Shown one piece after another: positions 17,798-18,468 of a stretch of DNA of 64,000 bases. The translations under genes were made by a program, and so were the position numbers. Every line of letters starts with the position of its first letter. Position 1 is the stretch's first letter. The stretch is from Candidatus Saccharimonadales bacterium (GTDB lineage Bacteria; Patescibacteriota; Saccharimonadia; Saccharimonadales; JAYRRP01). Under the pieces are notes generated by a model. It was not told the DNA's origin. It ran no database searches and saw only the letters and a program-made list of their open reading frames with translations. The stretch covers positions 154,983 through 218,982 of the forward strand of contig JAYRRP010000004.1 in the NCBI GenBank assembly GCA_041910055.1. The letters run 5' to 3'.

Positions 17798-18229
17798 CTA
17801 GTGCCTTATCTTTCGGTGACGCCGAATTTCAGCAACCTTAAGACGGGTAGCATGTAAATCGGCAAGTTGAACCGCGCGGCTTAACTCTTCTTTGTTTTTT
17901 GCAGATTGTTGCAATTGTTGCGCTCGTTTTAGTGCCTCGCGCACCTCTCGTTCATCAATCTCGTCAATATGGTCAGCTTCATCTACCAGTAATCGAACAA
18001 GGTTGTCAAGGATTTCGACCACTCCTCCATTGCTTGCAAAGTAAACAAGCCGCTCGTCATTATCGGTTGGCTTGCGCCGGATAGCAATCACCCCAGTGGC
18101 CGCCAAGCTAACTAAGGGAATATGGTGTGGCAGAATTGCAATCTGACCCAAGGGGGTAGGGAGCATCACTTCATATACTTCTTCACCAAACTTGATACCA
18201 TCAAGAGTGACAAGTTCAAACTTTAGCAT
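17798..18229 (-). CDS. atpC: F1 ATP synthase epsilon subunit
   Basis: The N-terminal beta-sandwich sequence ([10 protein letters not shown]...VMLPTPLGQIAILPHHIPL) is typical of epsilon. It is the last gene of the atp operon. Confidence 0.88.
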   Translation of the reverse strand: MLKFELVTLDGIKFGEEVYEVMLPTPLGQIAILPHHIPLVSLAATGVIAIRRKPTDNDERLVYFASNGGVVEILDNLVRLLVDEADHIDEIDEREVREALKRAQQLQQSAKNKEELSRAVQLADLHATRLKVAEIRRHRKIRH

Positions 18230-18468
18230 GCTCCATCAGTCCGATCCAATGCTTCTATTGGATCATCTCCATGCACTTCATTAAGCTTGCAAACCGACTG
18301 TAATAGGGCCCGTGCTATTTCAACAGGCTGGGTAGATATGTCCCTCAGCCAGCCCATATTAGCTTCAGTACAGTTACTAACACCATCGATAATCTTCCGA
18401 GCAAATTCAACAGGAACATTCGTTATTACATCTACAGAAAACTTATCGGGTTCTTGACGATCCATCAT
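18223..18468 (-). CDS. small acidic hypothetical protein (81 aa) encoded between atpD and atpC
   Basis: Its start overlaps the atpD stop (ATGA), and its stop overlaps the atpC start by 7 nt (ATGCTAA). No TM segment and no recognised domain. Confidence 0.6.

Follow-up and report, generated by a model that had tools for sequence, protein, structure and literature searches.

A predicted genus-restricted acidic gene overlapping atpD and atpC in the ATP synthase operon of a Saccharimonadales bacterium

Bacterial atp operons have a textbook conserved gene order, in which nothing is expected between the genes for the beta and epsilon subunits of F1. AtpTheta of cyanobacteria and IF1 of mitochondria, the latter a basic protein, are small inhibitors of ATP hydrolysis produced from stand-alone regulated genes, and the zeta subunit, conserved throughout a whole class, has its gene elsewhere than in the atp operon. 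Zeta (Pfam DUF1476) is a small soluble helical protein of the alphaproteobacterial F-ATPase, as known from Paracoccus denitrificans (in part after PMC8039183). At the level of translation, termination-reinitiation at overlapping stop and start codons such as ATGA and TAATG is an established bacterial mechanism and has been modelled for operons (PMC4538824, in part).

The 64-kb stretch of Saccharimonadales DNA analysed here (the window, to which positions refer unless another locus is named) contains an atp operon on the reverse strand with an additional open reading frame (ORF) between atpD and atpC. Our literature search turned up no account of a gene located between atpD and atpC, nor of intercalated ORFs, in the atp operons of Saccharibacteria. 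From 5' to 3' the operon comprises an atpI/Z-like gene at its head (PF09527; 24424-24774), atpB (23588-24427), atpE (23304-23552), atpF (22730-23284), atpH (22329-22733), atpA (20770-22323), atpG (19901-20767), atpD (18465-19904), the extra ORF (18223-18468) and, as the last gene, atpC (17798-18229), all on the minus strand. The two partners of the extra ORF were recognized by their family models, F1 beta by TIGR01039 (789 bits) and F1 epsilon by TIGR01216 (87.7 bits); the remaining genes were named from the ORF list and from the Pfam labels of their same-sized counterparts in the closest relative (95% identical). The atpD gene calls in relatives begin 10 codons further in (469 aa).

The extra ORF opens with two consecutive ATG codons. 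Read from the first (18468) it would encode 81 aa, but this codon is ATA in the closest relative, so the second ATG (18465) is the conserved start and the product has 80 aa (coding 18226-18465, stop codon 18223-18225). The original prediction of an ORF filling this gap is therefore borne out with a corrected start. At the 5' junction, ATGATG (18463-18468), which follows a purine-rich atpD tail, AAAGGCAAAAAA, the atpD stop codon TGA (18467-18465) overlaps the first ATG by 4 nt (ATGA, the reverse complement of 18465-18468) and the second (18465-18463) by 1 nt (TGATG); this 1-nt T(G/A)ATG junction was found in at least 15 related loci. At the 3' junction, ATGCTAA (18223-18229), the atpC start codon ATG (18229-18227) and the stop codon TAA of the ORF (18225-18223) share a 7-nt overlap, and a GGAG lies inside the ORF, 1 nt upstream of the atpC ATG. 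On a single strand, the start of the ORF overlaps the upstream stop and its stop overlaps the downstream start; both overlaps had been anticipated, together with the use of the same stop/start coupling as between the genuine subunit genes, and all of this can be read from the sequence. The product is acidic and soluble, as had been proposed, with a pI of 4.41, a net charge of -7, a GRAVY of -0.25 and no hydrophobic segment. The alpha-gamma and gamma-beta junctions of the window hold no inserted ORF (gaps of 2 and -4 nt). Small ORFs (35-140 aa) tightly sandwiched between larger ORFs of the same strand number three in the whole window, namely the extra ORF, atpH and a gene for a NUDIX protein; with two of the three being known genes, gene junctions in this part of the genome do not generally harbour such orphans.

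Two further ORFs lie next to the operon. One, of 107 aa and acidic (17465-17788, plus strand), is convergent to atpC, ends 10 nt from its stop codon, is called as a gene in all close relatives and belongs to no Pfam family. The other, of 386 aa (16256-17416, minus strand; 351 aa in the gene calls of relatives), is conserved beside the atp operon in relatives and shows a sub-threshold match to the cadmium carbonic anhydrase repeat (PF18484, E 2.9e-4, 21 bits; cutoff 29.2). Elsewhere in the window, a group I intron of 544 nt (matched by Rfam Intron_gpI at 57134-57401 with 88 bits) interrupts the anticodon loop of a tRNA-Thr(UGU) (57086-57704, minus strand) that default tRNA scans miss. Within the intron lies an ORF of 105 aa (57324-57641) whose CxxC...HH...CxxCH pattern is HNH-like by eye and for which Pfam gave no match at E <= 0.001. 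A large serine recombinase (Resolvase, Recombinase and Zn_ribbon_recom domains; 55628-57148, plus strand) ends inside the 3' exon of this tRNA-Thr, on the other strand, which suggests an integrated element.

Judged from its sequence, the extra ORF is a real protein-coding gene, because relatives keep its frame intact, its dN/dS (omega) amounts to 0.23-0.33, and both lineages available for comparison retain an internal PVE[FI]AR repeat. Gene calls place a 95%-identical protein between atpD and atpC on each of 15 contigs, which come from independent assemblies, and a 53%-identical protein occupies the same position in another Saccharimonadales metagenome-assembled genome (locus L010; 6 contigs), whose beta and epsilon subunits are 90% and 84% identical to those of the window. 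Relative to the closer homologue the ORF has accumulated 6 synonymous and 5 non-synonymous changes (omega 0.23), the corresponding value for atpD and atpC being 0.05. Relative to the more distant one, dN is 0.29 and dS 0.89, giving an omega of 0.33 in the annotated frame as against 0.89 and 0.59 in the shifted frames; identity by codon position is 0.74, 0.77 and 0.58, so that the third position is the least conserved, and at this distance the synonymous sites of the flanking genes are saturated. The gene appears to evolve about three times faster than that of epsilon. When the interior of the 235-nt gap of the window was shuffled, an ATG ORF spanning it arose in 0.8% of the trials. These results agree with the original view that the ORF is not spurious: it is intact and syntenic in close relatives, which keep the frame along with the spacer, and it bears the mark of purifying selection. 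The more distant relatives mostly lack the spacer or carry a different ORF in it. Conservation among related atp operons, which had been put forward as a check, thus held for the close relatives, yet with only two homologous clusters the ORF is not a conserved component of the operon in Saccharibacteria or in the candidate phyla radiation at large.

The blocks shared with the 53%-identical protein are D7-K8-F9, PVEFAR, C32-T-E, W39-L-R, QPVE-x-ARA, C59 and E63-V-H (80-aa numbering). Self-alignment and the conserved columns delimit an internal repeat, with one copy at residues P18-N36 (18358-18414, minus strand) and the other at P47-H65 (18271-18327, minus strand); its score had a p of 0.0014 against shuffles of the window protein, none of 5000 shuffles reached it in the 53% relative, and both copies are kept in both lineages. 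We also observed that, at residues shared by the window protein (18226-18465) and that of L010 (3757-3990), the codons are identical in 24 of 39 cases versus 15.1 expected from the per-amino-acid rates in the flanking atpD and atpC (P about 0.002). This excess synonymous conservation came with no RNA structure signal, and the adjacent parts of atpD and atpC showed no raised identity. No unusual mRNA structure was detected across the ORF (RNA fold z-score -0.89), the promoter and terminator scan stayed at chance level with nothing inside the ORF, and an Rfam search gave nothing at the ORF.

As regards family, the extra gene is a genus-restricted orphan. Only the two related clusters, neither of them named, emerged when 5.8 billion proteins were searched with a word index, also in a profile version, and 1.84 billion representatives were scanned exhaustively with phmmer. 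The phmmer scan also listed four giant repeat proteins (1350-5178 aa), which, on inspection of their sequences, we judged to be spurious repeat-summed noise; these matches were sums over 4-17 weak stretches sharing short motifs such as PVEF or KPVE. Pfam gave no match (the best, DUF6955, had an E of 0.19, below the cutoff), and neither did NCBIfam or PHROG. Among ATP-synthase proteins, the zeta family (DUF1476) was absent from the Pfam scan of the ORF at E <= 1 and no zeta relative appeared in the PDB profile search, IF1 gave no Pfam match, and the family, homologue and PDB profile searches together revealed nothing linking the ORF to zeta, AtpTheta, IF1 or any other ATP-synthase family. With a GRAVY of -0.25, a pI of 4.4 and no Pfam match, the product is not of the AtpI/AtpZ membrane-chaperone type. 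Comparison by blastp with alpha, gamma, beta and epsilon of the same operon gave E values of at least 0.79, that is, no core-subunit match, and there was no paralog within the 64-kb window. In the PDB profile search the only hits were designed helical repeat proteins (E 0.013), which are uninformative. An AlphaFold2 model built from a three-sequence alignment was of low confidence (pLDDT 57.6), with helices only at residues 19-30, 34-44 and 48-65, and a Foldseek search of the PDB with this low-confidence model found no fold match (best E 6.1).

To place the gene in its clade, we took atpC-anchored loci out of species-representative genomes and metagenomes and determined the atpD-atpC junction of each, counting as Saccharimonadales-like those whose epsilon is at least 43% identical to that of the window. 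The slot is empty in many Saccharimonadales: in about 36 such loci atpD and atpC overlap or lie at most 56 nt apart (at most 24 nt in all but one). In about 25 distinct loci the gap measures 130-520 nt. Of the 26 non-redundant loci whose gap reaches 130 nt or more, 18 have an ATG ORF that runs all the way from the stop of atpD to the start of atpC, as compared with 0.37 expected from shuffles. The products have 46-127 aa and nearly all are acidic (pI 4.0-4.7); most of the ORFs begin at a TAATG junction and end at an ATGA, and these stop/start overlaps are the best-conserved feature among otherwise unrelated inserts. Similarity was confined to small clusters, one formed by the window, L001 and L010, another by the L016 group with L044 and L091, and a third by L030, L031 and L013, the remainder being singletons. 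The window family and the largest cluster gave an hhalign probability of 0.1%, an HMM of that largest cluster did not raise other inserts above shuffled decoys, and Pfam, NCBIfam and PHROGs held no match for the other acidic inserts. A single fast-evolving family comprising all inserts was rejected, there being no sequence or profile similarity beyond the small clusters. Turnover can be rapid: L012 carries a 97-aa insert, whereas L017, whose epsilon is 92% identical, has none between beta and epsilon. Within the L016 group, 12 differences were found in 219 nt of insert versus 7 in 1020 nt of the flanking genes, so that the insert diverges about eight times faster than its flanks, with omega values from 0.18 to 0.93. 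The more distant Patescibacteria in the sample had no such ORFs.

The survey was extended to the other two F1 junctions, gamma-beta and alpha-gamma. Gamma-beta (atpG-atpD) inserts were present in 12 loci (L012, L013, L014, L015, L017, L019, L031, L037, L051, L060, L070 and L073), encoding 46-232 aa and sometimes arranged two in tandem; alpha-gamma (atpA-atpG) inserts occurred in two loci, L015 and L017, with 153 and 159 aa. At both junctions the inserts overlap the adjacent stop and start codons and are mostly acidic. In L017, L015 and L019 the beta-epsilon insert is absent and upstream inserts are present. At least one insert was found in 9 of the 11 loci where all three junctions are visible, and in 11 of the 12 loci whose epsilon is at least 50% identical to that of the window versus 5 of 22 more distant ones. 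No homology was found between inserts at different junctions. Together, the 18 spanned gaps among 26 and the similar ORFs at the other F1 junctions point to the window ORF as one case of a clade-wide habit of placing fast-evolving acidic orphan genes between F1 genes. The inserts would form a class of coupled acidic orphan ORFs in a Saccharimonadales subclade, and not a homologous family.

Genes of a different kind occupy the same gap in some relatives, which shows that the atpD-atpC site tolerates foreign insertions. A PF05635 gene (23S rRNA intervening-sequence, four-helix-bundle family) lies there in L011 (3502-3939) and in L041 (2056-2433), and a NYN-domain gene in the more distant locus L094 (1901-2404). 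These genes are basic (pI 9.6-9.7 for the PF05635 products) and uncoupled at the junctions, starting up to 36 nt after the atpD stop and ending 62-97 nt before the atpC start. The PF05635 profile, with which the L011 gene scores 120 bits, did not match the window ORF. We also considered the acidic ORFs as an overprint on decayed four-helix-bundle genes and discarded the idea, as neither six-frame tblastn nor blastn between the gaps showed any trace of such genes.

The explanation that we favour, with chances that we take to be evenly balanced for the whole of it, is a genuine, translated, genus-restricted gene whose product would be an F1-linked accessory protein and whose translation would relay ribosomes to atpC. 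Ribosomes ending atpD at TGA would start anew on the ATG that overlaps it (TGATG), synthesize a mostly helical, soluble and acidic protein of 80 aa with a duplicated PVE[FI]AR helix motif, and stop at the TAA within the atpC start region (ATGCTAA), where they would be handed over to atpC. We infer termination-reinitiation from this stop/start anatomy and from the established behaviour of overlapping stop and start codons in bacteria; by such a chain from atpD through the ORF to atpC, synthesis of the protein would stand in a fixed relation to that of F1 beta and epsilon. The protein could then serve as a lineage-specific F1-associated factor for assembly or regulation that acts largely through its negative charge, possibly on a basic surface such as the C-terminal epsilon tail with its charge of +6, and the ORF would double as a relay keeping atpC translation coupled. 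The functional step taken alone, an accessory protein acting on F1 in assembly or regulation, is a tentative proposal, which we prefer because the product is under protein-level constraint in this genus. The Saccharimonadales epsilons (window, 17798-17842, minus strand; L010-L104) do end in a strongly basic tail, for example RLKVAEIRRHRKIRH in the window atpC or AGLRRRKRR, and their last 15 residues carry a net charge of about +6 in loci of either kind, with an insert ORF or lacking one. The two kinds of loci showed, however, no meaningful difference in the charge of the epsilon tail, the length of epsilon or the beta tail, and this missing co-variation speaks against an accessory role. So do the loss or gain of a gene over the short distance between L012 and L017, which suggests that it is dispensable, the omega of 0.84-0.93 in the L016 group, which fits a weak constraint on the product, and the low confidence of the AlphaFold model.

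The main rival to the accessory-protein reading, which we find doubtful, is that inserted DNA survives at this site only if its reading frame stays open to ribosomes passing from the stop of the upstream gene to the start of the downstream one, thereby avoiding polarity and setting the beta:epsilon ratio. Translation would be what is selected and the peptide would merely have to be harmless, which would explain an acidic and soluble product that is free to drift. Much of what was seen across the clade fits this idea: inserts that vary from 46 to 232 aa and have no detectable common sequence family retain stop/start overlaps as their most conserved trait, they are gained and lost rapidly, as between L012 and L017, one family of them evolves near neutrality (omega 0.84-0.93), and genes plainly unrelated to ATP synthase (PF05635, NYN) also land in the gap. 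In the window itself, a GGAG only 1 nt before the atpC ATG would be poorly spaced for independent initiation. The family to which the window ORF belongs is nevertheless difficult to accommodate, since harmlessness alone would not preserve W39, C32, C59 and the repeat, and these residues and both repeat copies persist at 53% identity, a distance at which flanking synonymous sites are saturated, in a gene whose omega is 0.23-0.33. Moreover, in such small, streamlined genomes a useless 240-bp spacer would be expected to disappear under deletion bias rather than be kept in about half of the lineages, and the loci lacking an insert show that direct atpD-atpC coupling works.

Other explanations are less likely. 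An orphan gene with no bearing on ATP synthase, engaged for instance in conflict with its host or against phage, might have inserted itself into an operon with strong, constitutive expression and be evolving rapidly for reasons of its own; the extreme sequence turnover and patchy distribution, the unrelated mobile-type genes at the same site in L011, L041 and L094, and the lack of co-variation with epsilon or beta features are all compatible with it. We consider it quite unlikely, given that PHROGs and the other family libraries searched contain no match, that the acidic inserts are precisely coupled on both sides whereas the clearly foreign PF05635 and NYN genes are not, that the inserts all sit at F1-gene junctions (three junctions surveyed), and that the only other tightly sandwiched small ORFs in the window are two known genes. 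Finally, the ORF might be no separate gene at all, but either a frame left open by chance in a non-coding spacer or an extension of the beta C-terminus produced by -1 frameshifting on GGC AAA AAA TGA, as it lies in the -1 frame relative to atpD and follows six A's (seven in L010). This is highly improbable: a spanning ORF has a chance of 0.008 in the window gap and 18 were observed across loci against 0.37 expected, selection is frame-specific (omega 0.33 versus 0.89 and 0.59), and an ATG lies exactly at the stop in at least 15 loci, many of them without an A-run, though a frameshift needs no ATG. Conservation of the ATG at the stop in loci without A-runs led us to reject the frameshift extension.

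Of greater interest than the accessory-protein reading of the window gene is the slot for coupled acidic orphan ORFs between F1 genes that recurs across the clade. At the F1 stop/start joints of an operon that is essential and highly expressed, an epibiont lineage with a reduced genome has repeatedly accommodated fast-evolving orphan cistrons. The inserts could represent a hypervariable layer, added to an exceptionally conserved machine, of acidic mini-proteins made in step with F1 that bind it and tune its assembly or ATP hydrolysis, although we hold this to be unlikely; such proteins may bind, for example, the unusually basic epsilon tail or the C-terminal region of beta, and their rapid turnover would possibly follow from adaptation of the epibiont to its host or its energy regime. 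The 80-aa product of the window gene would then count among these subunit-like regulators. How energy is conserved in the candidate phyla radiation is poorly understood, and if the products act on F1 they would constitute a new lineage-specific class of ATP-synthase accessory proteins there. If they do not, the slot would provide a natural example of selection for translational coupling that both creates and maintains ORFs, that is, of gene birth inside an operon. In either case, annotators should keep such ORFs.

Compared with the systems described to date, the window ORF may work like the small regulators zeta, AtpTheta and IF1, and is a member of none of those families. Like zeta, its product is small, soluble and helical, is proposed to act on F1, and is lineage-restricted rather than universal; unlike zeta, to which it has no sequence or profile similarity, it is encoded inside the operon, is approximately restricted to a genus and is replaced by unrelated ORFs in neighbouring lineages. 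With AtpTheta and IF1 it would share the role of a small F-ATPase accessory protein, as originally proposed, but it is coupled between beta and epsilon and has homologues only in two Saccharimonadales clusters, and it is acidic where IF1 is basic. The AtpI/AtpZ genes, one of which heads this operon, are likewise non-subunit genes carried among the atp genes, yet they lie at the 5' end and encode conserved membrane proteins, whereas the window ORF is soluble, acidic, familyless and placed between F1 genes. The nearest positional analogues are the PF05635 genes in the same atpD-atpC gap of L011 and L041, from which it differs in that they are basic, uncoupled and part of a large known family to which it has no similarity. 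The nearest established mechanism would be translational coupling by termination-reinitiation, as both junctions of the ORF are exactly of the stop/start overlap type; such coupling normally joins functional cistrons directly, whereas here a sequence-variable cistron is interposed between them, which suggests a relay.
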